A stretch of 64,000 nt of DNA from a virus. The notes under the pieces are model-generated. The model made no database searches. It saw only the letters and a list, made by a program, of their open reading frames with translations, and was not told where the DNA came from. Location: positions 22,292 to 86,291 of the IMG/VR virus record IMGVR_UViG_3300045996_000607; one strand, given 5' to 3'. Numbering within the stretch: position 1 is the first letter of the stretch; the number at the start of each line of letters is the position of its first letter. The translations under genes and the position numbers were made by a program. Below, one piece after another: positions 21,326-64,000 of this stretch.

Positions 21326-23374
21326 ATGAATGTGCCCGATCTGCGCGCTGCTGTGTCTGTAAATGGCGGAACCCCCACCCGCTATGATATCGTCGGGCTG
21401 TTTCGTCAGCTGGTCACAGCCTATGGTGGGACACCGACGAAATGGTCCATCCGTGAACTTCTGCGGGAGGCGGTGACCGCAGCCGGCGGCACGCCGACGC
21501 AGTGGTCACAGGTTGGGCTCATGCGCGAGCTGGCGGCGGCCTTGGGGGTTGATCCGGGCGAGTATGCCGGGCGCACTCTTTCAGAGATTATCGCAGAGAC
21601 TGCGAAGGGCGGCACCCCCACGCCTACGCCCACTCCCGGCGTGGCTGCTCCGAACTATGCGACGGTCGCCAGCGCCCCGAACGTCGAAGTCTTCCCGCAC
21701 CTGACGACGTTCACCGAGAGCGGCGGGCGCGTGACCGGGTTCACCGATCAGAAGGGCCTGCCCTTCACCTCGCCCGACACAAACGGCCCCGTACTGATGA
21801 CGGATCTGCTGGGCCGCAAGTTCCTGCGCTTCACGGTGTTCACCGGCATTCAGGGAGCATGGTTGCGCAACGCCACGCTTGCGGCGCTGGACACCTATTG
21901 CGCGACATGGATGCTCGTTGGGCGCGTCCACCTTGCCTACAAGCAGGCATTCGTCAGTCACGGCAACAACGGCGCGACGCCGGCCACGAACGGATCTGCA
22001 CAGCTCGGCTGCTCGGGCGGGACCAACGTCATCCCGGGCGCCCCGATGGTCTCGGGCATGACGCCGCTGATCAACACCGCTGTCGCCAACGCTGCCAAAC
22101 TGGAGACCGGCTGCCAGCTTCAGGTCATCGGCAACGCGATCATGGCGAGCGACGGTGTGGGCGGGGCGACCACCTCGGGCACGCTGCACCACTGGCTCAA
22201 CAACGAGGTCGCAAGCCTCGCGATCAGCGGGCAACGCAATGTCGGCCGCACTGGCTTTGAAGTCGGGCGGCGGGCGAATGGCTCGGGCTCGACGTTCGAG
22301 TACGCGTATCTGGACCTCTACTACCTCGCTGGCTGGACGACGGGGCAGTTCACCAATGCGAACGTGCTGGCGCAGTCGACACTGATCGCAGGCATTCTGA
22401 CCAGCAACTGGGCGATCCCGGCGATCACCGATAGCACTATCCTCGGAGGCGATAGCCGCACCGAGCAGAACCAGACCAATGGCGTGTCCATGGCGATGAT
22501 GCTGACCGAGCCGGGTGGCGCAAATGCCCTCGCCACCAGTCACCGCGTGATCAATCTCGGCTATTCGGGCAAGGGATGGCAGACGCAGTACAACGCCACC
22601 GTCCGTCCGACCTCGCCCTATGGCTTCCTGCTGGGCGGCGGCAAGGATCGCGCGGTGTTCGGCGTCGGCCCCGGCGTGAACGACATGACTGCGGCGTCCG
22701 GCTGGCCCAAAACCAACGCAACTGCCGATCCCGGTGCCCTCACGGCTAACGATACCGTGGCGAGAGCGAACGAAGTATACGATACGGCGGGCACTCTGGA
22801 CTCGGTTTTCACCGGCTCGATCAGCGCCGCGGTCCTCACCGTCACTGCCGTGACCAGCGGCGCTATCCGCGTGGGCATGTCGCTCGATGTCAACGGAGGC
22901 ACCCTGTTCATCAACTCGCTTGGCACGGGAACGGGCGGAACTGGAACCTACAACCTGAACACTTCCGCCACGGTGGCATCGCAGACGATCACCGCGCGCC
23001 AGGGTGATGCACGTCGCACCGTGACCAACCTGCTTACGCTCGGCTGGAAGGTAGCGGTTTCGGCAGAGATCAAGAACAACGGCGCGAACGACGCCGGGAG
23101 CCCCTCACCCCTCGACACGCTGCGCGGCAAGCTCCTTGCCATGGCGGCTGATGTTCAGGCCGGCCCGGGTCAGACCTATGACGGCAAGTTCCGCGCGTTC
23201 GACAATCGCGAAATCGTGGTCGGCGGGCTGAAGATCTTCGGCACCGATGCTGTATTCAGCACCGGCTATTACACCGATGGCGTGCATCCGAACGACACGG
23301 GGCGTCCGTTCCTCGTGAGCGGCGGAACCACCCCGCAGCACGGCATCAAGGCCAACATCGAGGCGCTCGTCTGA
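21326..23374 (+). CDS. Virion-associated SGNH/GDSL esterase (N-terminal 20-aa repeats, PT linker, beta-rich domain)
   Basis: GDS, INLGYSG, GVND and DGVHP catalytic blocks; start at ATG 21326. Confidence 0.8.
   Translation: MNVPDLRAAVSVNGGTPTRYDIVGLFRQLVTAYGGTPTKWSIRELLREAVTAAGGTPTQWSQVGLMRELAAALGVDPGEYAGRTLSEIIAETAKGGTPTPTPTPGVAAPNYATVASAPNVEVFPHLTTFTESGGRVTGFTDQKGLPFTSPDTNGPVLMTDLLGRKFLRFTVFTGIQGAWLRNATLAALDTYCATWMLVGRVHLAYKQAFVSHGNNGATPATNGSAQLGCSGGTNVIPGAPMVSGMTPLINTAVANAAKLETGCQLQVIGNAIMASDGVGGATTSGTLHHWLNNEVASLAISGQRNVGRTGFEVGRRANGSGSTFEYAYLDLYYLAGWTTGQFTNANVLAQSTLIAGILTSNWAIPAITDSTILGGDSRTEQNQTNGVSMAMMLTEPGGANALATSHRVINLGYSGKGWQTQYNATVRPTSPYGFLLGGGKDRAVFGVGPGVNDMTAASGWPKTNATADPGALTANDTVARANEVYDTAGTLDSVFTGSISAAVLTVTAVTSGAIRVGMSLDVNGGTLFINSLGTGTGGTGTYNLNTSATVASQTITARQGDARRTVTNLLTLGWKVAVSAEIKNNGANDAGSPSPLDTLRGKLLAMAADVQAGPGQTYDGKFRAFDNREIVVGGLKIFGTDAVFSTGYYTDGVHPNDTGRPFLVSGGTTPQHGIKANIEALV
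21608..22607 (+). repeat. Direct repeat 1 of the SGNH gene body (copy 62995-64000)
   Basis: Mostly synonymous differences; 22481-22607 is identical to 63874-64000. Confidence 0.95.
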
Positions 23375-23453
23375 TGCACTTCTATCGCTCTCCGCCCTTC
23401 ATCATCACTGAGCTCTCGCTGGTGCTGTGGGCGGGGATATTGGGACTGATGAC

Positions 23454-23702
23454 ATGAGCGACACCGAAGCCCGCGCAGCCGCAGCCCGTCAGCTGCTGGA
23501 CAATCCCCTGCTGGCCGAGGCGTTCGCCAACGTGCGGGCCGCAGCGATCGAGGCATGGACCGAAACGAGCGTCATCGACGCCCAGAAGCGCGAGATCGCA
23601 TGGCTGACGGTGAAGGTGGTCGACCGGATCGTCGGTGAACTCGAGAGCGTCATCGTAAACGGCAAGATCGCCGCCCGTCGGGTGCAGGCGCCAGTTCGAT
23701 AG
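23454..23702 (+). CDS. Small head-module protein preceding the scaffold, phage B
   Basis: ARQLLDNPLLAEAF motif, typical of post-portal genes. Confidence 0.7.
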   Translation: MSDTEARAAAARQLLDNPLLAEAFANVRAAAIEAWTETSVIDAQKREIAWLTVKVVDRIVGELESVIVNGKIAARRVQAPVR

Positions 23703-23880
23703 GTGTTGGCCTCTCACCAACTTGGACGTTTCCTTACTGCTCGTGGGCGTAACGTGCGGCTGACGCCGCCGGCCCGTTTCCACTCAAGCGCAGCCTGACC
23801 GCTAGGATGCAACGTCTAAGCAGACACCTCGCGAACTGAGCGCTGAGACTACCACTCTCACCCCTGAGAAGGAACCCAAA

Positions 23881-24897
23881 ATGACAGATACGGCGACCCC
23901 GGAAACGGGACCCGTTGACGCGCCCGCGTCGGCTGAAAGCATTGCTGCCGAACTGATGTCGGGAAACACGGAAGCCCCTGCGAACGAGCTGGAAAGCGTC
24001 ACGCAGGAACTGGTCAATGAGGCCGAAGGGAAAGGCGAAGCCGACGAGGCACCCGCTACCGAGGACGATGCGACCGAACCCGTCGAAGAGGCTGAGAACC
24101 CCGAGGAAAGCTCCCCCGAACAACAGCAGATGGTGACCGTCAAGGTCAACGGCGAGGACCGCGAGGTCCCGCTGGCCGAAGCTCTGGCGGGCTATAGCCG
24201 ACTGGAGGATTACAAAGCGAAAACGGCGGAAGTGGCCGAGCAGCGCCGACAGATCGAGGCCAAGGCTTCGACCATCGAGGCGGACATCAAGGCCCATTAC
24301 GCGAGCCAACTTGAAGAAGCGACCAACCTGTTTGCCCAGTTCGACCCCGTGCTGGCGGAAGCCCGTACGATCAACTGGGAGGCCCTGAAAGCCGCCGACC
24401 CCGCTGCCTTCGTCGCTGCCCAGGATGCCGTCAACGCACGGCTGACTGCCATCCAGCAGATGCAACAGCAGGTCGAGAGCAACCGGACCGCCGCACAACA
24501 GCGACAACAGCAAGAGGCCGAGCAGGAGCGCGCACAGCGCTTCGACAAGGCCGCCGATGCAATCGTGAAGGAAATGCCCGAGCTGGCCGATGAGGCGAAG
24601 TTTCAGGCGTTTGCGACCGACGCTGTCTCTGCACTGCGGGAAAGCGGGTTCAACGATGCCGAAATCGCGGAATCTCTGGACGATCGCGTCCTGAAGCTCG
24701 CGAACGAGGCCCGTCAGTGGCGCGCCCATGTGGCCGCCCAAAAATCGCTCCCTGAAAAGCGTGTCGTTCCCAAGTCCGCGGTGAAGCCGCTGACCACGGA
24801 CGGCTCCGGCTCGCGCGCAAACCCTCCCCGGTTTCCCGGCAACGCTTCGCGCGATCGCAAGGTGGACTGGGTCACCTCCCAACTCCTTGAAGGATAG
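23881..24897 (+). CDS. Capsid scaffolding protein, phage B
   Basis: Acidic N-terminus; VTVKVNGEDREVPL.E...GY.R..DY..KT; INWEALK..DP. Confidence 0.8.
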   Translation: MTDTATPETGPVDAPASAESIAAELMSGNTEAPANELESVTQELVNEAEGKGEADEAPATEDDATEPVEEAENPEESSPEQQQMVTVKVNGEDREVPLAEALAGYSRLEDYKAKTAEVAEQRRQIEAKASTIEADIKAHYASQLEEATNLFAQFDPVLAEARTINWEALKAADPAAFVAAQDAVNARLTAIQQMQQQVESNRTAAQQRQQQEAEQERAQRFDKAADAIVKEMPELADEAKFQAFATDAVSALRESGFNDAEIAESLDDRVLKLANEARQWRAHVAAQKSLPEKRVVPKSAVKPLTTDGSGSRANPPRFPGNASRDRKVDWVTSQLLEG

Positions 24898-24902
24898 TAC
24901 CC

Positions 24903-25859
24903 ATGGCTGTTCCCACGAACACGTTCCTGACGTTCTCCGCCGTCGGCAATCGCGAAGATCTGCTCGACAAGATCACCAACATCTCGCCGGTCGACGTGCC
25001 GTTCACCACCATGGCGGACAGCGCGACGACCAATGGCGTGCTGCACGAGTGGCAGACCGACGCACTCGCTGCCGCCGCCGGTAACGCCCAGCTTCAGGGC
25101 GACGACGTGACGTTCGCGGCGGCAACCCCGACCGCGCGTGTCAGCAACCGCACGCAGATTGCCCGCAAGGAAGTCATCGTGTCGGGCACGCAGGAAGCCG
25201 TCGACAAGGCGGGTCGCAACAGCGAAATCGTCTACCAGATGAGCAAGAAGCGTGACGAGCTGAAGCGCGACAAGGAGTTCATCCTCCTGTCGAACCAGGC
25301 GCCCGTCACCGGCAACTCGTCCACCGCGCCGCAGCTTCGCCCGCTGTGCGGCTGGATCACGACCAACGACTATCGCGGCGCCGGCGGTGCGGACGGCACC
25401 TCGTCGGCCGCAGCAACGGACGGCACCCAGCGGGCACTCACGCTCGCCATGGTGACGACCGCCCAGCAGGCGGCATGGACGCAGGGCGGCAAGCCCACGT
25501 TCCTGCTTTGCGGCCCGGTGCAGCGCGGCAATCTGACCACCGTCATGGGCGGCGCGGCGACCAAGTTCTACGCCGTGGAAGACAAGAAGATGACGGCGAC
25601 GATTCAGGCGTTCGAAGGCGACTTTGGGCTGGTCAAGATCGTCACCGATCGCTTTGTCCGCGGCGGCCAGACCGGCGCCGATCGTGAGATCTTCCTGCTT
25701 GACCCCGATATGTGGGCAGTCGCCTACCTGAAGGGCCGCAAGATGGTCACGCTGGACCTCGCCAAGACCGGCGATTCCGAGAAGGGCGCGGTTCTCACCG
25801 AGTTCACGCTCGAGAGCCGTCAGGAAGCTGCTTCGGCGGCGGTGTTCGACCTCACCTGA
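24903..25859 (+). CDS. Major capsid protein, DUF5309/SU10-like, phage B
   Basis: GNREDL.D.I.NISP.D.PF, HEWQTD, N.TQI, LAKTGDSEK, EFTLE. Confidence 0.85.
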   Translation: MAVPTNTFLTFSAVGNREDLLDKITNISPVDVPFTTMADSATTNGVLHEWQTDALAAAAGNAQLQGDDVTFAAATPTARVSNRTQIARKEVIVSGTQEAVDKAGRNSEIVYQMSKKRDELKRDKEFILLSNQAPVTGNSSTAPQLRPLCGWITTNDYRGAGGADGTSSAAATDGTQRALTLAMVTTAQQAAWTQGGKPTFLLCGPVQRGNLTTVMGGAATKFYAVEDKKMTATIQAFEGDFGLVKIVTDRFVRGGQTGADREIFLLDPDMWAVAYLKGRKMVTLDLAKTGDSEKGAVLTEFTLESRQEAASAAVFDLT

Positions 25860-25881
25860 TAGGCCGCACTTCAACGACAAC

Positions 25882-25915
25882 GGGGCGGGGGAGCAATTCT
25901 CCGCCCCCTTTCTTT
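25882..25915 (+). terminator. Intrinsic terminator after the MCP
   Basis: GGGGCGGGGGA-gcaa-TTCTCCGCCCCC-TTTCTTT. Confidence 0.7.
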
Positions 25916-25926
25916 GGGAGACGCCG

Positions 25927-26265
25927 ATGCGCCGGATGATCGGACAGCATTGGGAAAACGACGTGCGCGTCACGTGGTGGGGCGATCCCGTCACGCACGA
26001 AGTCACGATCGAGCGCTGGCAGGACAATGAGCTTGCCCTCCGCAAGGTCGCCGACATCAATTCCGAAGGTGCGCCAAGTGTCGACGGGCTGGGTCACGCC
26101 GTGATCGAGCTGCCCGTCACCGTCGCTCAGGAATATTGCGCCAAGCGCGGCATTCCTTGGGAAAAGTTCATGTACGGCAACCAGTACGATGCGGAGTACA
26201 AGCGGCTTGCTTCGGAATACAGCCGGCTGACCTATTCCAATCACCGCGCCGTGAAGGCGTCCTGA
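25927..26265 (+). CDS. Hypothetical virion/assembly protein
   Basis: GGGAG RBS; coupled to the adaptor gene. Confidence 0.65.
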   Translation: MRRMIGQHWENDVRVTWWGDPVTHEVTIERWQDNELALRKVADINSEGAPSVDGLGHAVIELPVTVAQEYCAKRGIPWEKFMYGNQYDAEYKRLASEYSRLTYSNHRAVKAS

Positions 26266-26843
26266 TGGCTTATGCGGACCTCCTCGAAGACGTTGAGGAC
26301 ACCCTTGACCGCGACGATGTAGCCACTCGCCTGCCCCGCTGGCTCAAGCTCGTGGAATCGCGCCTCAACCGCCTGCTCGATGATCCTGATATGGAGGTCT
26401 CGACCACGCTGACGGGCGACGGGGCGAGCCTCCCCGCCGATTTCGGCGCGATGGTCTCGATCGGCACGGCGGACGGCAATCGGATTCTGCCGATGGGTTC
26501 TTCCGAATATGCGGCGATCCTGCCAGCCTCGGGCATCTCGCGCTATTACACGATCCGCGAGGGCAAGGTCTATTACACGCCGGGATCGGCAAATGTGACG
26601 CTGGTTTATCGTCGGTCGATCCCGCCGCTGACGGAAGCCGATGACAGCAACTGGCTGCTCGAGCGCGCGCCGGATCTCTATCTTTACGGTGTCCTTTTGC
26701 AGGCGGAAGCATGGGACGCGAACAACGAGCAGGCCGTTGGCTGGAAGTCTCTGTTCGATGAGGCGATTGACGAGCTTCGCGGGGATGGTGCCCGTCGCAA
26801 ATGGGGAGTGGGGCCGATCTCGCCCCGCCTGCGTCGCGCATGA
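26265..26843 (+). CDS. Head-tail adaptor protein
   Basis: Y.DL...L.R.D...E.RLNR.L and NWLL..APDLYLYG.L motifs. Confidence 0.75.
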   Translation: MAYADLLEDVEDTLDRDDVATRLPRWLKLVESRLNRLLDDPDMEVSTTLTGDGASLPADFGAMVSIGTADGNRILPMGSSEYAAILPASGISRYYTIREGKVYYTPGSANVTLVYRRSIPPLTEADDSNWLLERAPDLYLYGVLLQAEAWDANNEQAVGWKSLFDEAIDELRGDGARRKWGVGPISPRLRRA

Positions 26844-28264
26844 AGCTGGCCTACGGGGATTTCCTGCCGGACCTCCCTGACCACGCCTCCCCGGGGATTT
26901 CCGAGGCGATCAACGTCTATCCGAGCTCGGCGGGCTATCGTCCGGTTGGGGACTTCCTTGCGCATACCGACGCCCTGCCCGGCACCTGCCGCGGCGCCGC
27001 GGCGTTCGTAGCGCCAAGCGGGCGTGTCGTGTTCCTGGCAGGCACAGAGACGAAGCTCTACCGGCAGGACGGTGTTGAGTGGGTCGAGATCGGCACAGGC
27101 TACGCGACCCCGGAGGGCGGGCGCTGGCGCTTCGTCCAGTTCGGCGAACTGGCGGTTGTCAGCAATGCCTTTGATGTCCCGATCAAGGTCAATCTGGAGA
27201 CCGACGCCGTCGCAGTCCTTGGCGGAACCCCGCCCAAGATGCAGGCGATGGCGGTGGTGTCGAACTTCCTCGTGGGCACGCAGATCAACGGACTGGTCAA
27301 CGAGGTGGCGTGGTCCGGTGAGAACGATGCCGAGTGGTGGACCTTCGCTACTCGCAAGTCGGACTACAACGATTTCCCAGATGGCGGAGAGATTACCGGC
27401 ATTCTGGGTGGAGAGGTTGGGCTGATCCTTCAGCGCAACGCCGTTCGCCGGATGGCCTATATCGGCGGCAACGTCCTGTTCCGCTTCGACAAGATCAGCA
27501 GCAACGTCGGCTGCGCAACCATCCATTCGGTCGCGCAGCATGGCGAACTTGGCTTCTGGTACTCAGATACGGGCTTCAAGATGTGGGACGGCTCGCAAAT
27601 CCGCTCCATCGGTTTCGAGCGGGTCGATACGGCTTTCAACCAGCTGTACGGCATCGTGGACTTCAACGCGATGTCGACGGCCGTGGATGGGCAGCGCAGT
27701 ACGGTCGTCTGGTCCACCGGGCAGCGGATGTGGATCTACAACTGGCTGCTCGACAAGTGGTCAGTGGTCGATTTCGCCGCGGAAATCGTGACATCGCGGC
27801 TTACTCGCGCGCCCTCGCTGGACGAGCAGGACCCGGCAGTAGGCGAGGATGACGACAACGTCGATTTTGTGGGCCTAGACCCCTTTGATGCAGCGCGCTT
27901 CGGTGCCGGCGATCCGCGGTTCTATGTGTTCGAGAGCGGCCTGCTCGGCACGTTTGCCGGGGATAACATGGCGGCCAAACTTACAGGACGATCGATAGAG
28001 TTGATCGCGGGCCGTAGCGCCCGCATCCGGCGTGTCCGCCCGATGACCGATGCAGTGGGCGGGATTACGCTCCGTATCGACACGCGGCAGAGGCTGGGGG
28101 ACGCGCCGCGACGTGCGGACTTCACCACCCTGCAGGCGAGCGGAGAGATGCCGGTTCGTGCTCGCGGTCGATTTGCAAAGACCCGGATTACGATCGCAGC
28201 CGGCGAGGTGTGGACATACGTCCAAGGCATCGACGCGACGGTTGAAGCGGCCGGAAGCCGATGA
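26840..28264 (+). CDS. Tail nozzle / packaged-DNA stabilisation protein
   Basis: GDFLPD N-terminus, beta-propeller-like, podovirus gene order. Confidence 0.7.
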   Translation: MKLAYGDFLPDLPDHASPGISEAINVYPSSAGYRPVGDFLAHTDALPGTCRGAAAFVAPSGRVVFLAGTETKLYRQDGVEWVEIGTGYATPEGGRWRFVQFGELAVVSNAFDVPIKVNLETDAVAVLGGTPPKMQAMAVVSNFLVGTQINGLVNEVAWSGENDAEWWTFATRKSDYNDFPDGGEITGILGGEVGLILQRNAVRRMAYIGGNVLFRFDKISSNVGCATIHSVAQHGELGFWYSDTGFKMWDGSQIRSIGFERVDTAFNQLYGIVDFNAMSTAVDGQRSTVVWSTGQRMWIYNWLLDKWSVVDFAAEIVTSRLTRAPSLDEQDPAVGEDDDNVDFVGLDPFDAARFGAGDPRFYVFESGLLGTFAGDNMAAKLTGRSIELIAGRSARIRRVRPMTDAVGGITLRIDTRQRLGDAPRRADFTTLQASGEMPVRARGRFAKTRITIAAGEVWTYVQGIDATVEAAGSR

Positions 28265-28722
28265 GCGAGGTTTTCGCCTACATCTGCACCCGGCAGACGG
28301 CGGACCCCTATGTTCCGGGTATGTCGCGCGATCTAGCGACGCTTTCACGCGACGTGTCGGACGGGTTTCAGGCGCTGGTCGGTGGCTATCTGAGGATCGG
28401 GCAAATCAGCTTCTTCCCGATCCAGAAGGCCATCCCTTTCCATCTGCTCTGTGACGGACACGAGGAGCCGCAAGAGCGATTCCCGGAGCTATATGCCTAT
28501 CTCGGGAGCAGTCAGGGCACGCCGGCTGACCCGCTCAACTTTGTCCTGCCGAACTACATCGGCACCCTCGCCCCGGCCGCCACTGCTGATCCGGAAGTTA
28601 TCGCAGGCGGGACTGTCACGTCCACTACCCCGTCGCCTGGAACCGGCAATTCGGGCGGCTCGATCAATCCTCCGGTGGATAGCGGCGGACGCGTGCCTCG
28701 GTTGCGGGCACTGGAAGAATGA
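28261..28722 (+). CDS. Tail collar-domain protein
   Basis: IGQI..F....P...LLCDG.....FPELYAYLG...FVLPN. Confidence 0.75.
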   Translation: MSEVFAYICTRQTADPYVPGMSRDLATLSRDVSDGFQALVGGYLRIGQISFFPIQKAIPFHLLCDGHEEPQERFPELYAYLGSSQGTPADPLNFVLPNYIGTLAPAATADPEVIAGGTVTSTTPSPGTGNSGGSINPPVDSGGRVPRLRALEE

Positions 28723-30600: not shown

Positions 30601-30603
30601 AGA

Positions 30604-41984: not shown

Positions 41985-41998
41985 CTCCGCCGTTTCGT

Positions 41999-42160
41999 GT
42001 TTTCCACTCGCGCCCAGAACACCAGCCTTTTCAATGGCCGGTTTTCCAAGAACGCAAGGTGACTCTGGCGGATTTTCGTGCATGACACCTATCGCAATTT
42101 TAAGTGGATATCGACGCATATACTAGGCAGACTTTGGGGTGTTTTCCAAGCGTTTTCGAT
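41999..42160. other. Putative intact attP (arm-type repeats flanking an AT-richer core)
   Basis: GTTTTCCA at 41999, 42041 and 42141, plus GTTTTCGA at 42152, around the int stop; phage genes lie on both sides. Confidence 0.55.
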
Positions 42161-43184
42161 TGCCGCTCTTTGTTCCCTCCCATTTCAGGACCGCCGCAGA
42201 GCCGAGACGCTTGTTGTTCCGGCGCCGTGCGTAGTGCTCGACCATCCCGAGCGATTGCCCTGTGATCGATGAAACCTCGCCCGTTGAGCAGCCGGCCTCG
42301 AGCAGGGCATTCACAGCATTCTTGCGGAGGCCGTGGGGCACCACCTCGTAGCTGAGTGTGCGGGCAAACCGTTGCAGGTGCTTGCGCAGCGTGTCGACCT
42401 TCATTGGCCGGCCATTGCGACCATAGAGGATCGTCAGGGCCTCGCGCGGGGTTGCTTCCAGCAGCGCCTTCAGGTCGCTGTGTAGCTGGATATCCAGCTC
42501 CTTGCCGGTCTTCTGCTGCTTCACATAAACGAAGCCGTCGCGGATATCGGACCATCGCATCTTGCACACGTCGCCGATCCGCTGGCCGGTATAGTAGAGC
42601 AGGCCCACCGCGAGCCCGACGTTTGCATCAGCAAGCGCGGCCTCAATCAGATCCTCGGGCCATGGCTCGTGCTCCTCCTCCGACTTCTCGCCGAAGTCGA
42701 TGCCATCGGTAGGGTCGATCTTGATCCATTCCCGCTTGATCGCGAACCTCATCAGGTTCTGCATCACGGCGAGCACCATCTTTGCGGCGCCCGGTGTTGC
42801 TGACATCTTGTCGAGGAGCGCCACGATGTCGGAGCGCTCAACTTCAGCAAGCGGTGCATCCCCCATCTCGGCCTCGATCCGCCTGATGTAGATCAGGTAG
42901 GTGTGCTGCGTGCCGTTGCTGCGGCGGGTGAACTTCTCGCTCTTCTGGTACGCGCGGCTCAGGTCGGCAACCGTAGTGTCGCTCTTGAGCGCAGCCCGCG
43001 ACGTGCGAGCGGCCAGCAGCGAAGCATACACACCGCCATAGCTCGGGTCCGACTTCTTGGGCAGGCGCTTGTAGACACGCTTGCCGGCGACCGTCTGACC
43101 GGTGTCGAAATACTCGTAGTCATTGCCCCGCGCGCGGACCTTCTTGATGAAGTCGGGATATGAGGCGACCAGTTTACGCGGCAT
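42123..43184 (-). CDS. int: Tyrosine integrase
   Basis: YTGQRIGD, QQKT, HGLRK, SITGQS...HY catalytic residues. Confidence 0.95.
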   Translation of the reverse strand: MPRKLVASYPDFIKKVRARGNDYEYFDTGQTVAGKRVYKRLPKKSDPSYGGVYASLLAARTSRAALKSDTTVADLSRAYQKSEKFTRRSNGTQHTYLIYIRRIEAEMGDAPLAEVERSDIVALLDKMSATPGAAKMVLAVMQNLMRFAIKREWIKIDPTDGIDFGEKSEEEHEPWPEDLIEAALADANVGLAVGLLYYTGQRIGDVCKMRWSDIRDGFVYVKQQKTGKELDIQLHSDLKALLEATPREALTILYGRNGRPMKVDTLRKHLQRFARTLSYEVVPHGLRKNAVNALLEAGCSTGEVSSITGQSLGMVEHYARRRNNKRLGSAAVLKWEGTKSGNRKRLENTPKSA

Positions 43185-43799: not shown

Positions 43800-43975
43800 G
43801 GGACGTAATCCTGAAGGCGGGTTTCTCGCGCGGGTCCGTCTCTTCCCACATCTGGCCGATCATGCTGCAGCTAAGCGCGTGAATCATATCAGCGGTGAGG
43901 CGGCATCCCGTCCCCCGGTTATGGGCTCGGCGCATCCGATTGAGTGCGTCTTGGGCGGCAGCGAGAACACTCATA

Positions 43976-44512
43976 TCACCCCTCCTCCCTCTGTTCGTTG
44001 CTGGCATCGTCCCGCCCTCCGTCGTTGGGGGTGAGGGCTGCTCGGGCTTTTGCGCGCAACCGGATGATCTCTTTACCCGCTTGGATCATCATTCGGGCGG
44101 CGTTGACATCTCCCTGCCTCTCAAGGGCTCGCGCCATCACGCCAAGGTCTTTCGTCCGGACAAAGCCATCCTCCCCCGTCTCGCCGCTATGGGAGGGGAT
44201 CAAGGCAAGGATGGCGTCGGCGGCGGAAAGTTGATCCAGCCAATGCGCCGCCGCCATATCGGACCCGCGCGCGAATGTCGGCCCGCTGACCTTGGCCGCA
44301 ATAATTTCCGCCACCCGTTCCCGCGAAGGAACCGCCGGCATTGCGGCTGCGGGTTCGGTGAAGGCGAGCATGGCGCGGATTATCGCGTCGTTGTCTTGCA
44401 TTGTCAGGTTGACGCGCCCATTCGCCACGTCTTCTCGCTTCTGCTGCTCGCGCGCTTGACGCAGCACCTCTCGCGCACACTCGGCCAGCGCCTCGGATCG
44501 GGAGTTGGTCAT
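43976..44512 (-). CDS. Early hypothetical protein
   Basis: RE.VA.II...ADAILAL motif, also seen in 1785-2450. Confidence 0.55.
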   Translation of the reverse strand: MTNSRSEALAECAREVLRQAREQQKREDVANGRVNLTMQDNDAIIRAMLAFTEPAAAMPAVPSRERVAEIIAAKVSGPTFARGSDMAAAHWLDQLSAADAILALIPSHSGETGEDGFVRTKDLGVMARALERQGDVNAARMMIQAGKEIIRLRAKARAALTPNDGGRDDASNEQREEG

Positions 44513-44603
44513 AGGGAGGTGTCCTTGGTGGCGAGGGCAAGTGCAGCGCGCACAGCGGCTTCCTGAATGCGGGCAAGCGCGATCTCGTAGGCTTTGATCT
44601 GCT

Positions 44604-44795
44604 TCATCGCGGCTTCCTTCCCGTGCCGCTGCACTCGCTGGGCGACCGACATTCCTGCGCGCGCTCACAATGCGTCGAGGGGCAGCGCTTCCAGTTGTCC
44701 AGAATGTCTGTGCGGCACCAATCCTCGTGATAGGTAAGGTGCCCGCATTCCTTGCACGGACCCTTTGGCCCTTCGAACAGGCTGAGGATGCTCAC
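44604..44795 (-). CDS. Small Cys-rich protein
   Basis: CPSTHCERAQECRSPSEC; GAGGAG RBS. Confidence 0.55.
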   Translation of the reverse strand: MSILSLFEGPKGPCKECGHLTYHEDWCRTDILDNWKRCPSTHCERAQECRSPSECSGTGRKPR

Positions 44796-45601
44796 GCCCC
44801 CTCCTCCGCTTCGGGCTGCGGGGTCGCGGCGGCTACCATCGCTCGCCAGATGTCGGCCAGCATGCCCGCATCCAAGTCGGGAATCGGTTCTTCGCCGATC
44901 CACGTTCCGTCCCACGCTGCGATGCACATCGCCTCGGTCGGCTCCCTCGGCACCACCACCAAATCCCCACCCGGCTGCACTGCCGGGGCGGAGAGAAGGG
45001 CGTCTGGCGAACGATAGTTTTTCAGCCACACCAAATGCTGGCGGGCGGCGATGCGGAGGAAGAGCGAAAGGCTAACCCCGCGTCGGTTCGCTGCCTTTGT
45101 GATCTCCTTCCATTCCGGCGTCGGCACCAGCGTTTGGATGTTCTTGCCGGGATCGCCTTCGCGAAATTCGGCAAGCATCTGATCTGCATCCGCGAGAAGA
45201 GCCGACTCCATCGCGTTGACCTCGCTGGCTGCGCAAAGGTATCCCGCGCGGAACACATGCCATTGCTGCTGCTGGCTCGGGGAAAGATTGTCGTAGTGCG
45301 CTCCTGCCCATTCGTCGGCAGAACTATCGGCCAAAGCCTCCCGCAAATCCTGCCCGGAGGATGCTGCTGGCGGGGTCTTCGGGGTGTAGGCGACAACCTT
45401 GTAATCGCCAGCGAAGTCTAGCCAGCGCTCATCTCCGGCGCGGTCTGGTAAGGCGAAGGTACGCCAGCCGCTCACACTCTCCATGAGCACCGGCCCACCA
45501 TCCCAGTCAGCAGGCGCACTATCGCCGCCGTGGCATTCCTTCATGCCCTCAGGGATAACCTCCCCCGAGGATGCGATGGGGGGCGTTTGGGGAGCGGTCA
45601 C
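44792..45601 (-). CDS. Multi-domain early hypothetical protein
   Basis: DWDGGPVL domain, RHH-like segment, VVVPREPTEAM...IWRAMVAAA C-terminus. Confidence 0.65.
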   Translation of the reverse strand: MTAPQTPPIASSGEVIPEGMKECHGGDSAPADWDGGPVLMESVSGWRTFALPDRAGDERWLDFAGDYKVVAYTPKTPPAASSGQDLREALADSSADEWAGAHYDNLSPSQQQQWHVFRAGYLCAASEVNAMESALLADADQMLAEFREGDPGKNIQTLVPTPEWKEITKAANRRGVSLSLFLRIAARQHLVWLKNYRSPDALLSAPAVQPGGDLVVVPREPTEAMCIAAWDGTWIGEEPIPDLDAGMLADIWRAMVAAATPQPEAEEGA

Positions 45602-45828
45602 TTGGAAGCCCTCCGGCGCATAGCCACGACGCGACTTGCTTCCGGCACGCGCTCGGCATCGCGATCGGTACGATGCAGCACCAGATCTCCCGGCTGCTTT
45701 TCAGTGCGCTCGACCGTGACGCGGCGGTATCCGCGAGCGGCGAGGAAATCGTGGTAAGACATCATCTGTCCTTTCTGCCCGGTGGGTAAGAGGGGAGCCC
45801 ACCGGGCGTTGCGCCCATCGGGGCGATC

Positions 45829-57844: not shown

Positions 57845-57892
57845 GCGCAGCGCGAACACGCCACACGGGCTTTAAAATCGAAAGGACGGGAT

Positions 57893-58438
57893 ATGGGTCG
57901 CCACGCAAAACGCAAGCCGATGAAAGCCAAGGGTCCTCCGATCATCGTGGTTACCGGCATCGACGCCACGCCCGAACGGCTGGCAAAGGACCCGGACAAC
58001 GACATTGTCCCAGCCGGCATCGAGAAGCTTGGGGAGCGGCAGGGTCGTGCCAGGCAGTTCCGCGCAACCCACCTCGATCGCCTGCACAAGTCGGGGAACC
58101 TGAGCTACCTGCAGTGGTACGCCGGCAACGTCTACCGTGAGACGCATGCTCGCTGCCACTTCGCCTTGTCGGTGGTCGCAAGCTACGGCGAGCGCACCGG
58201 AGCGGCGGAGCATCCCGGCGCGTTCGGCTTCGGGTTGCCGCGGCAAGAAGCGCAGGTCAGGGCCCGCGACCAGATGCGGCTCATGCGCAGCGAGTTCCCC
58301 CGCGAGCTGCAGGGCTTCATGGACCGTCTGCTGATCCACGACAGCATGCCGCGCTATGCGGGGCGGGCTGCGATGCGGAACATGGCCGAGATCCGCAAAG
58401 GGCTGGATGCGCTCGCGCTGTATCTGCGCTTGACGTGA
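57893..58438 (+). CDS. Putative late-gene regulator (Q-like), phage B
   Basis: Near-identical to 13380-13925. Confidence 0.6.
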   Translation: MGRHAKRKPMKAKGPPIIVVTGIDATPERLAKDPDNDIVPAGIEKLGERQGRARQFRATHLDRLHKSGNLSYLQWYAGNVYRETHARCHFALSVVASYGERTGAAEHPGAFGFGLPRQEAQVRARDQMRLMRSEFPRELQGFMDRLLIHDSMPRYAGRAAMRNMAEIRKGLDALALYLRLT

Positions 58439-58486
58439 CCGGAAAATTCGGGCATGGAATCCCACAAGTTGGCGAATTGCGCCAAT

Positions 58487-58512
58487 AAGGGCTCGCTTCG
58501 GCGGGCCTTTCT
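58487..58512 (+). terminator. Intrinsic terminator (tR'-like), phage B
   Basis: Same hairpin as 13974-14000. Confidence 0.7.
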
Positions 58513-58654
58513 TGTTTCTGGCGCCCTCCCTTCGCCAGACCCCGCCCGACCCCAATCCGCAGACGCACTGATGCACCAGCTGCGCGAAGGCCGTCGGGCG
58601 GGAATATTCACAGACTGAAAGCGGCGACCCGCATGCGGACCCGTGGAGAAAGTC

Positions 58655-58927
58655 ATGGAAGAACAGCCCACTGAAGAACCGAACCGCGGCAACGCCGGCA
58701 AGGGCCGCCCAAAAGGCTCGGTCAACAAGGCGACCAAGGCGATCAAGGAGATGATCCTTCAGGCGCTGGACGAGGCGCACCCTGATGGTGGCGTCGCGTA
58801 CCTGAAGAAGCAGGCCAACGAGCAGCCGGTCGCGTTTATGTCGCTGATCGCCAAGGTGATGCCGACGCAACTTACCGGAGAGGATGGCGGGGCAATTCAG
58901 GTGACCGCCATTCGCTGGGTTGACTGA
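58655..58927 (+). CDS. terS: Terminase small subunit, phage B
   Basis: Core nearly identical to phage A TerS; termini differ. Confidence 0.8.
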   Translation: MEEQPTEEPNRGNAGKGRPKGSVNKATKAIKEMILQALDEAHPDGGVAYLKKQANEQPVAFMSLIAKVMPTQLTGEDGGAIQVTAIRWVD

Positions 58928-60191
58928 GCTTGTCATCCCGAGGGCCCGCGTGTTTTCGCCCCTCACCCGGCCGGCGCGCTACAAGGGCGCATATGGCGGT
59001 CGCGGATCGGGCAAGTCGCAGTTCTTCGCGGATCTCATGGTGGCGAGGGCTGTGGCGCAACCGGGCTTTCGGGCACTCTGCTGCCGCGAGGTCCAGAAAA
59101 GCCTCAAGGAATCGGCGAAGCGGCTGATCGAGCAGAAGATCATCCAGCAGGGCGTCGGCAAGCTGTTCGAGGTGCAGGAGTCGCAGATCAAGACCCCGGG
59201 TGGTGGCTTGGTCGCGTTCGCGGGCCTGCAGGATCACACGAGCGAGAGCATCAAGTCGTACGAGGGCTTCGACGTCGCGTGGGTCGAGGAGGCCCAGACC
59301 GTCAGCGACCGATCGCTGAACCTGCTGCGTCCTACCATCCGCGCGCCGGGCTCGGAATTGTGGTTCAGCTGGAACCCGCGACGCCGGGAAGACGCAGTCG
59401 ACAAGATGCTGCGAGGCTCGGAGCTACCAACTAACGCGATCGTGGTCCGGGCGAATTATGACGAGAACCGGTGGTTTCCCGCGGAGCTGGAGCAGGAGCG
59501 GCTGGACTGCCTCCGCCAACAACCGGACCAGTACGCGCACATCTGGGAAGGCGATTACGTCACCGTTGCAGCGGGCGCCTATTACGCGGCCGATCTCGCG
59601 AAGGCACGGGCGGATAGCAGGATCGGGTTCGTCGCTCCTGACCCGCTGATGACCTATCGGGCGTTCTGGGACATCGGCACACGGGACGCGACGGCCATCT
59701 GGATAGCCCAGTTCGTTGGCTCGGAAATCCGCGTGCTGGATCACTATGAGGCATCGGGTCAACCGCTGGCAGCGCACCTCAACTGGCTGCGCTCACGGGG
59801 CTACGCAGCGGCTCAATGCGTGTTGCCGCACGATGGCGCGAACGAGAACCACGTTACGGCCATCCGTTTCGAGGATCACATCAAGGCGGCGGGTTTCGAC
59901 ACGCTTGTCATCAAGAACCAGGGCAAGGGCGCCGCGCTCAAGCGTGTGGAGGCATCGCGACGGCTGTTCCCATCGGTCCGTGTGAATGAAGAGACGTGCC
60001 GCTCCGGTCTCGAGGCGCTTGGCTGGTACCACGAACGCCGGGACGAGCATCGGGGTATCGGGCTCGGGCCTGAACACGACTGGGCGTCGCATTCCGCGGA
60101 CGCATGGGGGCTGATGTGCGTGGCGCACGCCGAACTGGCGGCTTCCGACACATGGGCGCCGGTCACGCAACGCAAGATCCGGGTGGTCTAG
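58920..60191 (+). CDS. terL: Terminase large subunit (PBSX-like), phage B
   Basis: GGRGSGKS, WVEEAQ, SWNP, WDIG, HSADAW. Confidence 0.95.
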   Translation: MTELVIPRARVFSPLTRPARYKGAYGGRGSGKSQFFADLMVARAVAQPGFRALCCREVQKSLKESAKRLIEQKIIQQGVGKLFEVQESQIKTPGGGLVAFAGLQDHTSESIKSYEGFDVAWVEEAQTVSDRSLNLLRPTIRAPGSELWFSWNPRRREDAVDKMLRGSELPTNAIVVRANYDENRWFPAELEQERLDCLRQQPDQYAHIWEGDYVTVAAGAYYAADLAKARADSRIGFVAPDPLMTYRAFWDIGTRDATAIWIAQFVGSEIRVLDHYEASGQPLAAHLNWLRSRGYAAAQCVLPHDGANENHVTAIRFEDHIKAAGFDTLVIKNQGKGAALKRVEASRRLFPSVRVNEETCRSGLEALGWYHERRDEHRGIGLGPEHDWASHSADAWGLMCVAHAELAASDTWAPVTQRKIRVV

Positions 60192-60240
60192 CCCGAAGTT
60201 CAATCCGGGTGGGCAATCAACGCGAACACAGGAGAACGAC

Positions 60241-60789: not shown

Positions 60790-60795
60790 GCCCAC

Positions 60796-60828
60796 ACGGC
60801 GCGGCTTATCCCCTGGCCGCGCCGTTTT
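60796..60828 (+). terminator. Intrinsic terminator-like hairpin
   Basis: ACGGCGCGGC...GCCGCGCCGT-TTT. Confidence 0.6.
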
Positions 60829-60851
60829 ACCCTCCAGCAATCGGAAATATC

Positions 60852-61058
60852 ATGGCTGAACAGCTATATCGGGTGACGCTGACCACGGCGGTTGGCACCA
60901 ACCTCGACGCCGACGTTATGGCGGAAACCGGCGACGGCGCGGCGCTCGCAGCGCTGGCAGAGCATCGCGGTGCGCGCGTCTCGCACGTCGAGCCCGCCCC
61001 CGCGCACCTCCAGCCGCACATCATCGCGGCCAAGGCAGCCGAGAAGAAGGCCGCCTGA
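60852..61058 (+). CDS. Small hypothetical late protein
   Basis: TGATG-coupled to the portal gene. Confidence 0.65.
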   Translation: MAEQLYRVTLTTAVGTNLDADVMAETGDGAALAALAEHRGARVSHVEPAPAHLQPHIIAAKAAEKKAA

Positions 61059-62935
61059 TGATCGAAGCTACCGCCTTTCGTGACCTCGTGGTCCGCAGGC
61101 GGGACGCGTGCGTCAAGTTCAAGGACGGGAAGCCGTCCCGCGATCGGCGCGAGGCGATGGACTTCTACAACGGCAAGAACCTCGATCTCTACGGCGACAG
61201 CGGGGACGGACTTTCCACCGTCGTCAGCCGCGACGTCATGGAATCGATCGAAAGCGTCATGCCTCCCCTGCTGCGCCCGTTCGTGGCTGGCGAGGAGGTG
61301 GTCTCGTTCGATCCCGTGCAGGCAGAGGACGAGGAAGGCACCAAGCAGGCTACCGAATACGTCAACCACGTCTTCAAGCGCGGCAACAACGTGCTCGACG
61401 TGGCGCAGACGGCGCTGAAGGATGGGCTCCTGTTCCGTCTTGGCGTGGCAAAGACCGTCATGGAAGAGGAAGAGGACGGCGGGCCCGAGCAGTTCAGTGA
61501 TCTGGATGAAGCACAGCTGATGGCGCTCAGGGCGTCCGCACAAGAGCAAGGCCGCGAGCTGGTGGGCGACATAGCCCAAGACCCCTCGACAGGCCTCTAC
61601 AGTGCCACGCTGGGGCCGAAGAAGCGCAAATGCTACCGCGTCCACATCATCGCGCCCGACGAGTTCCTGTATGAGGAGCGGCTGGCATCGCTGAACGCCT
61701 CCACGTTCCTCGGGCACTCCAAGGTTGTCGCATTGGGCGACCTGATCGCCATGGGCCTCGATGAGGAAAAATGCCGCGCGCTGAAATCGGGCAAGCCTAG
61801 CGAGGAGCAGGACGCCCGCTTCCCCGACGAAGACGACAACGGCGACGACTGGAAGACCGACGACCTCGCCCGGCCGGTCTGGGTCGATGAATGCTATATC
61901 CGGTGCGACTATCAGGGTGAAGGCGTCCTCGAATGGCGCAAGGTCATGCTCGGCGGGCAGGACAAGACGCTCATTCTTGATGAGGCCGCGGAAGATCACC
62001 CCTATTCGACGTGGACCCCAATCCCGATCCCGCACAAGCTGGTCGGGCTCTCCTATTTCGATCTGACCCGCGAGATCCAGATCAACAAGACCGCGATTCA
62101 GCGCGAGCTGAATAATGCGATGTACCTTGCCAATCGCCCGATGCGTGCGGTGCTGAAGGGCAAGGCGGACATCGACGCGCTGCTGAACCCGTCGGTGGGC
62201 GGGATCGTGCAGATTTCGGAAAAGGGAGCCGTCGAAAACATCCCGAGCGGCGGTGACGCAGCTTTCGGTCCCGGCCTCCAGATGATCGAATACATGGACG
62301 GGATGCGCGAAGCCCGTACCGGCGTCACCCGCTACAATCAGGGTATGGATTCCAACTCGCTGAACAAGACGGCGACTGGCATGAATATCATCTCGAGCAA
62401 CAGCCAGCAGCGCCAGGAGCTGGTTGCGCGGCAGTTTGGCGAGTTCCTGAAGGACATCTTCCTCAAGCTGCTGGGCCTCGTCTCGCAGCACGCCTCAGAG
62501 CAGGACGTGGCGAAGCTCCGCGGCCAGTTCGTACCATGGCCGACCGAATACGACGCGAACGTCTCGGTCGGGCTAGGAACGAATAACAAGGATCAGCTTG
62601 TCGGCCACCTGATGTCGCTGATGCAGCTTGATGAGCGCATTATCGGGCTTCAGCAGGGCCTGAACGGCCCGCTCCTTACCGCCGTCAACGTTTACGAGAA
62701 GCTGAAGCGCGTCACCGAAGCGATGGGGCTGAAGGGCGACAAATATTACACCAACCCCGAGGACATGGAAGCGCAGCCGCAGCAACAGCAGGAGCCACCG
62801 CAAGACCCGTTGGCAGAGCCGAAGCTGAAGGCGCAGACCGAGATCGAGAAGGAAAACATCCGGCAGCAGGGCAAGGTTGCCGTCGAGCAGATGCGGCAGC
62901 AAAGCTCGGTTGTGCCGTTTGAGGCTGTGGGCTGA
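61058..62935 (+). CDS. Portal protein, phage B
   Basis: Homologous to 15857-17941 (S.VVSRDV, RTGVTR.NQG....LNKTA.G, VGLGT). Confidence 0.85.
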   Translation: MIEATAFRDLVVRRRDACVKFKDGKPSRDRREAMDFYNGKNLDLYGDSGDGLSTVVSRDVMESIESVMPPLLRPFVAGEEVVSFDPVQAEDEEGTKQATEYVNHVFKRGNNVLDVAQTALKDGLLFRLGVAKTVMEEEEDGGPEQFSDLDEAQLMALRASAQEQGRELVGDIAQDPSTGLYSATLGPKKRKCYRVHIIAPDEFLYEERLASLNASTFLGHSKVVALGDLIAMGLDEEKCRALKSGKPSEEQDARFPDEDDNGDDWKTDDLARPVWVDECYIRCDYQGEGVLEWRKVMLGGQDKTLILDEAAEDHPYSTWTPIPIPHKLVGLSYFDLTREIQINKTAIQRELNNAMYLANRPMRAVLKGKADIDALLNPSVGGIVQISEKGAVENIPSGGDAAFGPGLQMIEYMDGMREARTGVTRYNQGMDSNSLNKTATGMNIISSNSQQRQELVARQFGEFLKDIFLKLLGLVSQHASEQDVAKLRGQFVPWPTEYDANVSVGLGTNNKDQLVGHLMSLMQLDERIIGLQQGLNGPLLTAVNVYEKLKRVTEAMGLKGDKYYTNPEDMEAQPQQQQEPPQDPLAEPKLKAQTEIEKENIRQQGKVAVEQMRQQSSVVPFEAVG

Positions 62936-64000
62936 TGGGGCGGCTGTCGCTCGGCGTCCGCCTTGGCATGGGCCCGCATGGCAACGGCTCCAGCGGCGGC
63001 ACCCCCACGCCTACGCCTACGCCCACTCCCGGCGTTGCCGCGCCAGATTATGCGACTGTCGCGAGCGCCCCAAACGTCGAAGTATTCCCGCACCTGACGA
63101 CGTTCACCGAGAGCGGTGGGCGCGTGACCGGGTTCACCGATCAGAAGGGCCTGCCCTTCACCTCGCCCGACACAAACGGCCCCGTGCTGATGACGGATCT
63201 GCTGGGCCGCAAGTTCCTTCGCTTCACAGTGTTCACCGGCATTCAGGGCGCCTGGCTGCGCAACGCCACGCTTGCGGCGCTGGACACCTATTGCGCGACA
63301 TGGATGCTCGTCGGTCGTGTCCACCTTGCCTACAAGCAGGCATTCGTCAGTCACGGCAACAACGGCGCGACGCCGGCCACGAACGGATCTGCACAGCTCG
63401 GCTGCTCGGGCGGAACCAACGTCATCCCCGGAGCTCCGATGGTCTCAGGCATGACACCGCTGATCAACACCGCTGTCGCCAACGCTGCCAAACTGGAAAC
63501 CGGCTGCCAGCTTCAGGTCATCGGCAACGCTATCATGGCGAGTGATGGTGTGGGCGGGGCGACCACCTCGGGTACGCTGCATCACTGGCTGAACAACGAG
63601 GTCGCCAGCCTTGCGATCAGCGGGCAGCGCAATGTCGGCCGCACTGGCTTTGAAGTCGGGCGGCGGGCGAATGGCTCCGGATCCACGTTCGAGTACGCCT
63701 ATCTGGACCTCTACTACCTGGCCGGCTGGACGACCGGGCAGTTCACCAATGCGAACGTGCTGGCGCAGTCAACACTGATCGCAGGCATTCTGACCAGCAA
63801 CTGGGCTATTCCGGCGATCACCGATAGCACGATCCTGGGAGGTGACAGCCGCACCGAGCAGAACCAGACCAACGGCGTGTCCATGGCGATGATGCTGACC
63901 GAGCCGGGTGGCGCAAATGCCCTCGCCACCAGTCACCGCGTGATCAATCTCGGCTATTCGGGCAAGGGATGGCAGACGCAGTACAACGCCACCGTCCGTC
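62935..64000 (+). CDS. SGNH esterase virion protein, second copy, truncated by the window end
   Basis: MGRLSLGVRLGMGPHGNGSSGGTPTPTPTPTPGVAAPDY...; open to 64000; absent from the ORF track because it has no stop. Confidence 0.85.
   Translation, partial: MGRLSLGVRLGMGPHGNGSSGGTPTPTPTPTPGVAAPDYATVASAPNVEVFPHLTTFTESGGRVTGFTDQKGLPFTSPDTNGPVLMTDLLGRKFLRFTVFTGIQGAWLRNATLAALDTYCATWMLVGRVHLAYKQAFVSHGNNGATPATNGSAQLGCSGGTNVIPGAPMVSGMTPLINTAVANAAKLETGCQLQVIGNAIMASDGVGGATTSGTLHHWLNNEVASLAISGQRNVGRTGFEVGRRANGSGSTFEYAYLDLYYLAGWTTGQFTNANVLAQSTLIAGILTSNWAIPAITDSTILGGDSRTEQNQTNGVSMAMMLTEPGGANALATSHRVINLGYSGKGWQTQYNATVR

Follow-up and report, generated by a model that had tools for sequence, protein, structure and literature searches.

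This locus raises the question of how two scaffold genes and two unrelated major capsid genes come to stand in one late operon. The window analysed here, a stretch of 64,000 nucleotides, is the end of a single virus record of 86,291 bp, and its last base is the end of the contig. The earlier note had read it as one complete phage (phage B, or X) inserted into another prophage (phage A, or Y) by Campbell-type homologous integration through a shared SGNH esterase gene, and had named an assembly chimera through the repeat as the alternative. Our data favour the alternative: most probably, the 86-kb record consists of two separate, related phage genomes strung together by a short-read assembler, with no biological insertion.

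The left part of the window belongs to phage A. Its early and regulatory region (1..14300; PHROG matches and tblastx) is seen here in part, as phage A continues upstream beyond the window to contig base 1. This region matches PHROG families of exonuclease, DNA methyltransferases, HNH endonuclease and CI-like repressor, is collinear by tblastx with the early region of phage B, and holds no host-like genes over window 1-14300. The head genes that follow, all on the plus strand, are the large terminase TerL A (14502..15860; phrog_2, 7e-42; Pfam Terminase_3, 1.3e-20), an SU10-type portal (15857..17941; Pfam SU10_portal, 8.7e-172), scaffold A (18454..19443; phrog_3927 head scaffolding, 1e-09, at the same position as in A-type relatives), a major capsid protein of the GP7/BPP-1 type (19456..20487; Pfam GP7, 2.8e-114) and a Bbp16-type cement protein (20512..20943; Pfam Bbp16, 7.6e-22). 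The first copy of the SGNH esterase gene (21326..23374, plus strand) comes after them.

Beyond this copy the head genes are of phage B, again on the plus strand. Specifically, a 91-aa protein found ahead of scaffold B in every B-type relative (23427..23702; assigned by its gene context in them) is followed by scaffold B (23881..24897; phrog_3927, 1e-43), by a major capsid protein of the SU10 type (24903..25859; Pfam SU10_MCP, 9.3e-84), and by B-type virion structural proteins (26136..28264; phrog_2941, phrog_3287), after which tail genes run to about 36 kb. The two major capsid proteins show no BLASTP similarity (E 2.9), so that the late operon with two scaffolds and two unrelated capsids holds in the record as assembled. 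The large terminase and the portal of phage B lie at the other end of the window, also on the plus strand (TerL B, 58920..60191; Pfam Terminase_3, 7.4e-30; SU10-type portal B, 61058..62935; Pfam SU10_portal, 3.3e-153, 29% identical to portal A). The start of the second SGNH copy (5' part, 62935..64000, plus strand) overlaps the portal B stop codon (TGATG). The rest of this copy is contig bases 128-894, and once read across the contig closure the gene is intact, with 610 aa. The sequence after it, which the earlier note had singled out for inspection, is an A-type adaptor and tail set.

A repeat search confirmed that the two SGNH copies are direct repeats spaced 41,393 bp from start to start. 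By pairwise alignment, copy 1 of the repeat (21608..23376, plus strand) shows 95.3% identity to copy 2 over 1,775 aligned columns; copy 2 corresponds to window 62995-64000 and runs on at the contig start. Direct repeats of shared homology thus flank phage B, and the 41,393 bp between the SGNH copies contain one complete phage with a full single gene set, as the earlier note had stated. Within the repeat, a block of 473 bp is identical in both copies and forms the joining point of A and B (22481..22953, plus strand; contig 1-473 = 44772-45244), with mismatches directly before and after it. Bases that tell the alleles apart stand at window 22438, 22444, 22450, 22453 and 22480 to its left and at 22954, 22957 and 22963 to its right, with corresponding columns in the other copy. 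No other exact repeat in the whole record reaches 127 nt, the next longest being 108 nt. Outside the block the SGNH alleles differ by 6.2%, and the probability of such an identity by chance is about 6e-14; because a perfect stretch of 473 bp sits in alleles otherwise this different, it suggests a recent exchange between phages A and B. The alleles offer no way of phasing by an outgroup, the differences being synonymous plus 3-4 residues and the nearest homologue being 50% identical.

The ends of the contig coincide with this same block. Contig base 1 is the first base of the 473-bp block, and contig bases 1-127 equal bases 86165-86291 at 100% (window 63874..64000, plus strand), these being also the first 127 nt of the block. 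The two ends overlap by exactly 127 bp, and the record closes through this overlap to a circle of 86,164 bp. In addition, the gene content of the whole 86,291-bp record includes no host DNA anywhere.

These observations bear directly on the proposed integration of circular phage B into prophage A within a bacterial chromosome. From the window alone such a reading is understandable, as direct repeats surround a complete phage B and the end of phage A is out of sight. However, the record holds no host DNA and no attL or attR host junctions, and it closes on itself. Moreover, the integrase/att region of phage A (contig 16.2-17.5 kb) is bordered left and right by phage genes, which places phage A in the excised and not the integrated permutation. 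We therefore regard the Campbell insertion as highly improbable and do not retain this part of the earlier note. Campbell-type cointegrates and tandem polylysogens of temperate phages are familiar from lambda biology. The record resembles them in the direct order of two genomes separated by direct repeats of a shared sequence, but differs in that host junctions are lacking, that the repeated sequence is a cargo gene rather than an att site, and that the arrangement is known from assembly alone.

The circle resolves into two phage genomes, phage A of 44,771 bp and phage B of 41,393 bp, that are collinear over their whole length by tblastx and by repeat comparison. When it is split at the 473-bp block, terminase, portal, scaffold, capsid, adaptor/tail set and integrase occur just once in each half, and the alternative pairing at the block gives two complete circles of normal size, with one head module each. 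The second pair of repeats that the earlier note had pointed out, in the Q-like region with an offset of 44,513 bp, is real (the shared late-regulator region 57848..58609, plus strand, is 90.6% identical to phage A 13335-14097), and it is ordinary homology between the two genomes.

The gene order of the two separate circles matches that of 160 relatives in IMG/VR, none of which carries both capsid types and the longest of which is a contig of 46,957 bp; relatives in GenBank measure 33-47 kb. None of the 49 A-type loci for which 5 kb or more of downstream sequence is available has B head genes, and the succession of an A-type cement gene and B-type scaffold and capsid genes was found in none of these 49 informative loci. 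Likewise, a B-type portal stands directly upstream in each of the 35 B-type loci for which 5 kb or more of upstream sequence is available, and every B-type relative has the order portal B, small protein, scaffold B, capsid B. The assignment of the scaffold and capsid genes after the first SGNH copy to portal B, made in the earlier note, is thereby borne out. The positions occupied by the SGNH gene are variable cargo slots in the relatives, 24-1,227 bp past portal B and 0.4-7 kb past cement A. In their sizes and gene order both phages match their relatives: phage A has the GP7 capsid and Bbp16 cement of BPP-1-like podophages, phage B has SU10_MCP as in podophages of the SU10-type capsid and portal, and both phages have SU10_portal. 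What they have in addition is the rare SGNH esterase gene that both bear in a cargo slot.

How an assembler could have produced the record can be outlined as follows. Two distinct, related temperate podophages, phage A with the BPP-1/GP7 capsid and Bbp16 cement and phage B with the SU10-type capsid, would have been present in one sample, both with a near-identical SGNH carbohydrate-esterase gene whose alleles share one perfect stretch of 473 bp. In a de Bruijn graph with k=127 this stretch would be one edge common to both genomes, with two paths leading in and two leading out, and the graph would take the form of a figure-8. A path through the block, A, the block again, B and back to the start would yield one apparent circle of 86,164 bp, and the emitted contig would start and stop at the branch vertex, its two ends sharing k bases. 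The opposite pairing of entries and exits would yield the two normal circular genomes. We infer an assembler of the SPAdes type, which chose its pairing without read support, and take the identical block itself to be the trace of a real recent exchange between the two phages.

The observations behind this account are the overlapping ends, a block that is unique and lies at the join, two halves that are complete and collinear with each other, the gene order of the relatives and the absence of host DNA. The terminal overlap of 127 equals the top k of the JGI metaSPAdes workflow, which uses k up to 127 on 2x150 reads (10.1101/2020.09.30.320929). According to CheckV, assemblers leave k-mer-length terminal repeats on circular templates, and over-long DTR contigs in IMG/VR were judged to be assembly artefacts (PMC8116208). 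Replicons connected through a repeat get merged (Recycler, PMC5408804), and chimeric contigs arise when viruses present together have similar stretches of sequence (Roux et al. 2017, PMC5610896). The record shares with figure-8 chimeric circular contigs the k-mer-length terminal overlap, a length about twofold that expected, a join at sequence common to co-existing viruses, and parts that are each a complete genome; both genomes contain the exact repeat, no shorter than k, in which they are joined, and they have no other shared edge. The CheckV cases are mostly the same genome repeated, whereas the present record concatenates one copy each of two distinct genomes, whose capsid families differ, via the single 473-bp edge.

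Because an assembler working with k=127 yields just such a contig from two circles that share one edge, and the join lies in the only exact repeat of at least 127 nt with the contig cut at its first base, the chimera that the earlier note had kept as an alternative is the better reading. Two points temper it. The position of the join is not discriminating on its own, because the longest perfect identity is also the likeliest site of a real homologous recombination, and the choice made by a path-based assembler may have been backed by read pairs.

Such a real event would be an 86-kb episomal cointegrate or hetero-concatemer, formed when A and B recombined in one cell within the 473-bp block, with the joined form abundant. 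In its favour, each genome is bordered on both sides by the shared gene in direct orientation, the outcome expected of one reciprocal crossover, the perfect identity amid divergent alleles suggests recent exchange, the integrase regions point to a probable common host and attachment site, and the assembler did choose the joined path. On the other hand, a dimer of 86 kb is larger than all 160 relatives (at most 47 kb) and could not be packaged whole, the join falls exactly where the k=127 graph is ambiguous and where the contig is cut, and neither assemblies nor reads from IMG/VR, GTDB, JGI, GenBank phages, PLSDB and Logan contigs lend it independent support. We consider such a cointegrate unlikely, and marginally less likely still that the circle is a heterodimeric replicon or hetero-concatemer of heteroimmune phages that have just recombined in the esterase gene, an intermediate of capsid-module exchange. 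If the join were true, the record would be a snapshot of phage–phage recombination placing two capsid systems in one late operon.

The search for independent copies covered both assemblies and reads. An exact 60-mer of the 473-bp block had no match in IMG/VR; the SGNH protein, searched against IMG/VR, GTDB genomes and JGI metagenomes, had none either; and no GenBank phage or PLSDB plasmid matched the 19-27 kb segment by megablast, in collections from which the record itself may be absent. Two sequencing runs contained 7% of the sampled words, with only short Logan contigs over 17-29 kb. One of them matches the B head module with an identity of roughly 89-96%, and the other, a rhizosphere metagenome, gave scattered fragments, a few at 99% or more. 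None of the Logan contigs of these two small-share runs bridges the 473-bp block over 17-29 kb, the listed 'joints' having sides of less than 30 nt, and these contigs are evidence neither for nor against the join.

Integrase B is a tyrosine recombinase (42123..43184, minus strand; Pfam Phage_integrase, 1.7e-18; phrog_1), and the 136 bp past its 3' end (41987..42122, no strand assigned), about 95% conserved with phage A, are a candidate attP of phage B. The DNA of the integrase region is about 95% identical between A and B (contig 16239-17720 versus 64278-65759), in a block of homology that runs past the integrase stop codon, and because of this identity the two phages probably share a host and an attachment site. 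No tRNA genes lie near the att regions. The integrase/att region of phage B has phage genes on both sides, as does that of phage A.

This similarity could also speak for a tandem double lysogen that was excised as one circle via its outer att sites: the near-identity of the integrases suggests a common attB, and the repressors of A and B differ. However, cuts at the att regions, 48,039 bp apart, would give a 48-kb unit with two head modules and a 38-kb unit without scaffold and capsid, contradicting the canonical gene order of all relatives, and the natural boundaries of the units are the SGNH copies and not the att sites. Such an att-mediated cointegrate appears to us the least probable of the readings considered, below even the Campbell insertion.

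The record, then, is an assembly path and not a demonstrated molecule. It should be split at the 473-bp block into genomes of 44,771 bp and 41,393 bp, and statistics that count it as one complete virus of 86 kb are wrong. What remains as real biology is ordinary mosaicism, that is, related phages sharing a rare SGNH esterase.

The two copies of this esterase show 99.5% amino-acid identity with a dN/dS of 0.02, and their N-termini differ; one shared enzyme occupies a different cargo slot in each of the two head operons. The small proteins next to one copy have no similarity to those next to the other, and neither a promoter-like site nor a plus-strand terminator-like site was found around the esterase gene. 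The exact ORF of copy 1 is present in Atlas, and a single full-length homologue, at about 50% identity, is the sole one to reach that level in large protein databases.

Copy 1, of 682 aa, is divided on the basis of its residues, model and fold into an N-terminal anchor module, a lectin-like jelly roll and an SGNH domain. The protein has no Pfam match even at E 0.1, and 2 of its 22 homologues match Lipase_GDSL_2 (best E 7e-06). The SGNH/GDSL residues D376-S377-R378, G415, N452, D651 and H654 are invariant or nearly so in the 22 homologues, Ser377, Gly415, Asn452, Asp651 and His654 being strictly invariant. In the AF2 model (pLDDT 76), residues 366-682 adopt a fold like that of GDSL esterases, with Z 15-17.5 and rmsd 2.6-3.3 over about 180 aligned residues, the best being 4rw0_B (Z 17.5). 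Judged by these residues and the predicted fold, the label of SGNH esterase holds. Clostridial neurotoxin binding domains, the top Foldseek matches, were rejected as relatives, the similarity being that of a generic lectin-like jelly roll (residues about 130-360). This jelly roll, which precedes the SGNH domain, also resembles the Pan3 tailspike domain. With virion-associated SGNH/GDSL carbohydrate esterases of phages, the tailspike-type deacetylases, the protein would share catalytic residues, fold and the preceding jelly roll; it differs from them in that the predicted esterase is encoded inside the head operon, with two different N-termini.

The genome to which the window belongs consists of a single virus contig of 86,291 bp, of which the window covers bases 22292-86291, up to the contig end. 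A self-comparison of this whole contig revealed that bases 1 to 127 are identical to bases 86165 to 86291; the unique length of this 'circular' contig is therefore 86,164 bp. As the same 127-mers occur twice in the contig, the record must derive from a path-based assembler. Terminal repeats of k-mer length arise when reads from a circular template are assembled (CheckV, PMC8116208), and the JGI metagenome workflow employs metaSPAdes with k = 33, 55, 77, 99 and 127 on 2x150-bp reads (10.1101/2020.09.30.320929). The present record was presumably made by an assembler of the SPAdes type.

Self-comparisons, including one by tblastx, show that the contig is made of two collinear phage genomes arranged head to tail, whose homologous blocks are ordered alike: phage A (contig 1-44771) and phage B (contig 44772-86164). 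Specifically, both genomes carry adaptor and structural genes (~40% amino-acid identity between A and B), a tail gene (80%), the integrase region (1,482 bp at 94.9%), early genes, a Q-like region, the small terminase, the large terminase (~64% identity) and the portal. The Q-like repeat noticed earlier was found as 764 bp at 90.6% identity, with an offset of 44,513 bp between the genomes. The repeat in the esterase gene has a spacing of 41,393 bp and extends over 1,775 aligned columns (95.3% identity; contig 43899-45667 versus 85286-86164 continuing into 1-896).

Everything described in the earlier note concerning this esterase repeat, the gene order, the two scaffolds and the two unrelated capsid genes is present in the sequence. 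Upstream of esterase copy 1 (21326-23374) lie terminase A, an SU10-type portal, a scaffold, a GP7/BPP-1-type capsid protein and a Bbp16 cement protein, while downstream are located a 91-aa protein, the second scaffold and an SU10-type capsid protein. Copy 2 (from 62935) directly follows portal B (61058-62935). We also inspected what follows copy 2, outside the window and in phage A: in order, a 94-aa ORF, phrog_2941, phrog_3287, internal and tail proteins, a tailspike, a TnpB-type transposase and integrase A. No host DNA was detected across the whole record, as the genes outside the window and the phage A early region within it are all phage-like, and both integrase/att regions are flanked on each side by phage genes. 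Therefore, 'prophage A' is not integrated in anything in the record, and the proposed Campbell-type insertion of phage B into it through the esterase gene is not supported. An att-mediated tandem could be ruled out as the origin of the record, since cuts at the att regions, 48,039 bp apart, would leave both head modules in one unit and no head module in the other.

To compare the two halves with their relatives, we mapped their head and adaptor proteins on 160 IMG/VR loci, of which 80 carry a capsid gene of type B (up to 90% identity) and 80 one of type A (up to 78%). The two capsid types never occur together in these 160 relatives. In the 35 B-type loci that reach 5 kb or more upstream, the order is always portal B, the 91-aa protein, scaffold B and capsid protein B followed by B-type adaptors. 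In the 49 A-type loci that reach 5 kb or more downstream, it is always portal A, a small protein, scaffold A, capsid protein A, cement, a variable stretch and A-type adaptors, and a B-type head gene is present in none of them. The B-type order is also found on a Thiobacillus MAG contig, whose capsid gene (83% identical) is the nearest in GTDB genomes. The longest contig among the 160 relatives measures 46,957 bp, and GenBank relatives range from 33 to 47 kb. These gene orders and sizes indicate that the two halves are natural genome units of normal size with one head module each, in support of the earlier view that the stretch between the esterase copies is one full phage.

Contig bases 1-473 and 44772-45244 (window 22481-22953) form a block of 473 bp with perfect identity between the esterase copies, which is the sole exact repeat of at least 127 nt in the whole record, the next longest being 108 nt. 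The first base of the block is contig base 1, the flanking bases differ both before (44771 versus 86164) and after it, and the final 127 bases of the contig are the opening 127 bases of the block. These results show that A and B are joined in the record at the block; the sequence alone is compatible with either pairing of the flanks. At k=127, the de Bruijn graph of two circular genomes with exactly one common stretch longer than k has the shape of a figure-8, the common stretch being a single edge that can be entered and left in two ways each. If entry A is connected to exit B, and entry B to exit A, the outcome is a single circle of 86,164 bp, as in the record. If each genome's entry is connected to its own exit, the outcome is two circles, namely Y (contig 1-44771) and X (contig 44772-86164). 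Chimeric contigs where co-existing viruses share highly similar regions are produced more often by metaSPAdes than by MEGAHIT (Roux et al., PMC5610896), the merging of replicons connected through a repeat and the ambiguity of pairing have been described (Recycler, PMC5408804), and, in IMG/VR, DTR contigs at least twice as long as expected have been judged assembly artefacts (CheckV, PMC8116208).

A real episomal cointegrate or hetero-concatemer of A and B would be joined at the same place, because genuine recombination would also take place at the longest perfect identity, and the path chosen by the assembler may have been backed by read pairs. We consider this rather unlikely. The join coincides with the single ambiguous place in the graph, the contig is cut at that very vertex and an 86-kb dimer is without precedent among the relatives; for these reasons the record is most likely a figure-8 assembly path, as the chimera through the repeat already named as an alternative would have it, and it should be split at the block into Y and X. 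In two public runs, whose short contigs cover only 7% of the sampled words, no contig bridged the block. The esterase gene was found in no other assembly in IMG/VR, GTDB genomes, JGI metagenomes, GenBank phages or PLSDB. In the run of a coded isolate ('organism A'), low-depth contigs are ~89-96% identical to phage B head and adaptor genes (23448-28379); the esterase and the phage A head genes are absent from these contigs.

Given the 6.2% divergence outside the block, the chance probability of 473 bp without a difference is ~6e-14. Most simply, the block would be a recent gene-conversion patch, which would mean that both phages meet in the same host; less simply, the identity may stem from assembler collapse.

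The gene common to both phages is indeed an SGNH esterase, as earlier suggested. A Pfam search of the protein gave no match, and two of its homologues matched Lipase_GDSL_2. In an alignment with 21 homologues, S377 (the GDS serine), G415, N452 and D651/H654 are fully or almost fully conserved, and in the predicted structure (pLDDT 76) residues 366-682 resemble GDSL carbohydrate esterases (Z up to 17.5), preceded by a lectin-like jelly roll at residues ~127-360. The two alleles differ at 80 of 1,758 nucleotides, yet at only 4 of 586 residues (dS 0.18, dN/dS 0.023; 582/585 identical by BLASTP); both are thus old, functional and under strong purifying selection. Homology between the copies begins abruptly at a Pro-Thr linker, the N-termini being unrelated (21326-21640 and 62935-63010). 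That of copy 1 is a ~100-aa module that also begins many proteins whose C-terminal domains differ (50-66% identity), while that of copy 2 comprises only 24 aa; copy 2 is translationally coupled to the portal, its ATG overlapping the portal stop codon. These features suggest a virion-associated carbohydrate esterase whose anchor can be exchanged. Both esterase positions are variable cargo slots in relatives, where portal B is followed by a gap of 24 to 1,227 bp and cement A by one of 0.4 to 7 kb. The cement-adaptor slot, which the esterase gene occupies in phage A, may generally receive cargo in BPP-1-like head operons. In five A-type relatives (L085, L095-L097 and L102), 4-7 kb of extra genes lie between cement and adaptors, including ORFs of 500-1,090 aa.

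Comparing the head modules of A (15857-20943) and B (61058-62935 plus 23427-25859), the portals are 29% identical and the capsid proteins share no detectable pairwise similarity. The presence of different capsid families (GP7 plus Bbp16 versus SU10_MCP) in otherwise collinear phages with a near-identical integrase region, late regulator and small terminase amounts to a head-module swap. The TnpB-type gene of phage A (contig L001 13921-15144, 7.1 kb upstream of the window; Pfam OrfB_IS605, Cas12f1-like_TNB and HTH_OrfB_IS605) sits between tail/lysis genes and integrase, where phage B carries unrelated genes. The phage A early region includes two DNA methyltransferases and an HNH endonuclease (2437-2919, 4530-5102 and 7532-8227). 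In both phages, the cargo genes close to the att regions are separated by short conserved islands, and a 61-nt element occurs twice within phage B (40121-40181 and 48702-48762) at 89% identity.
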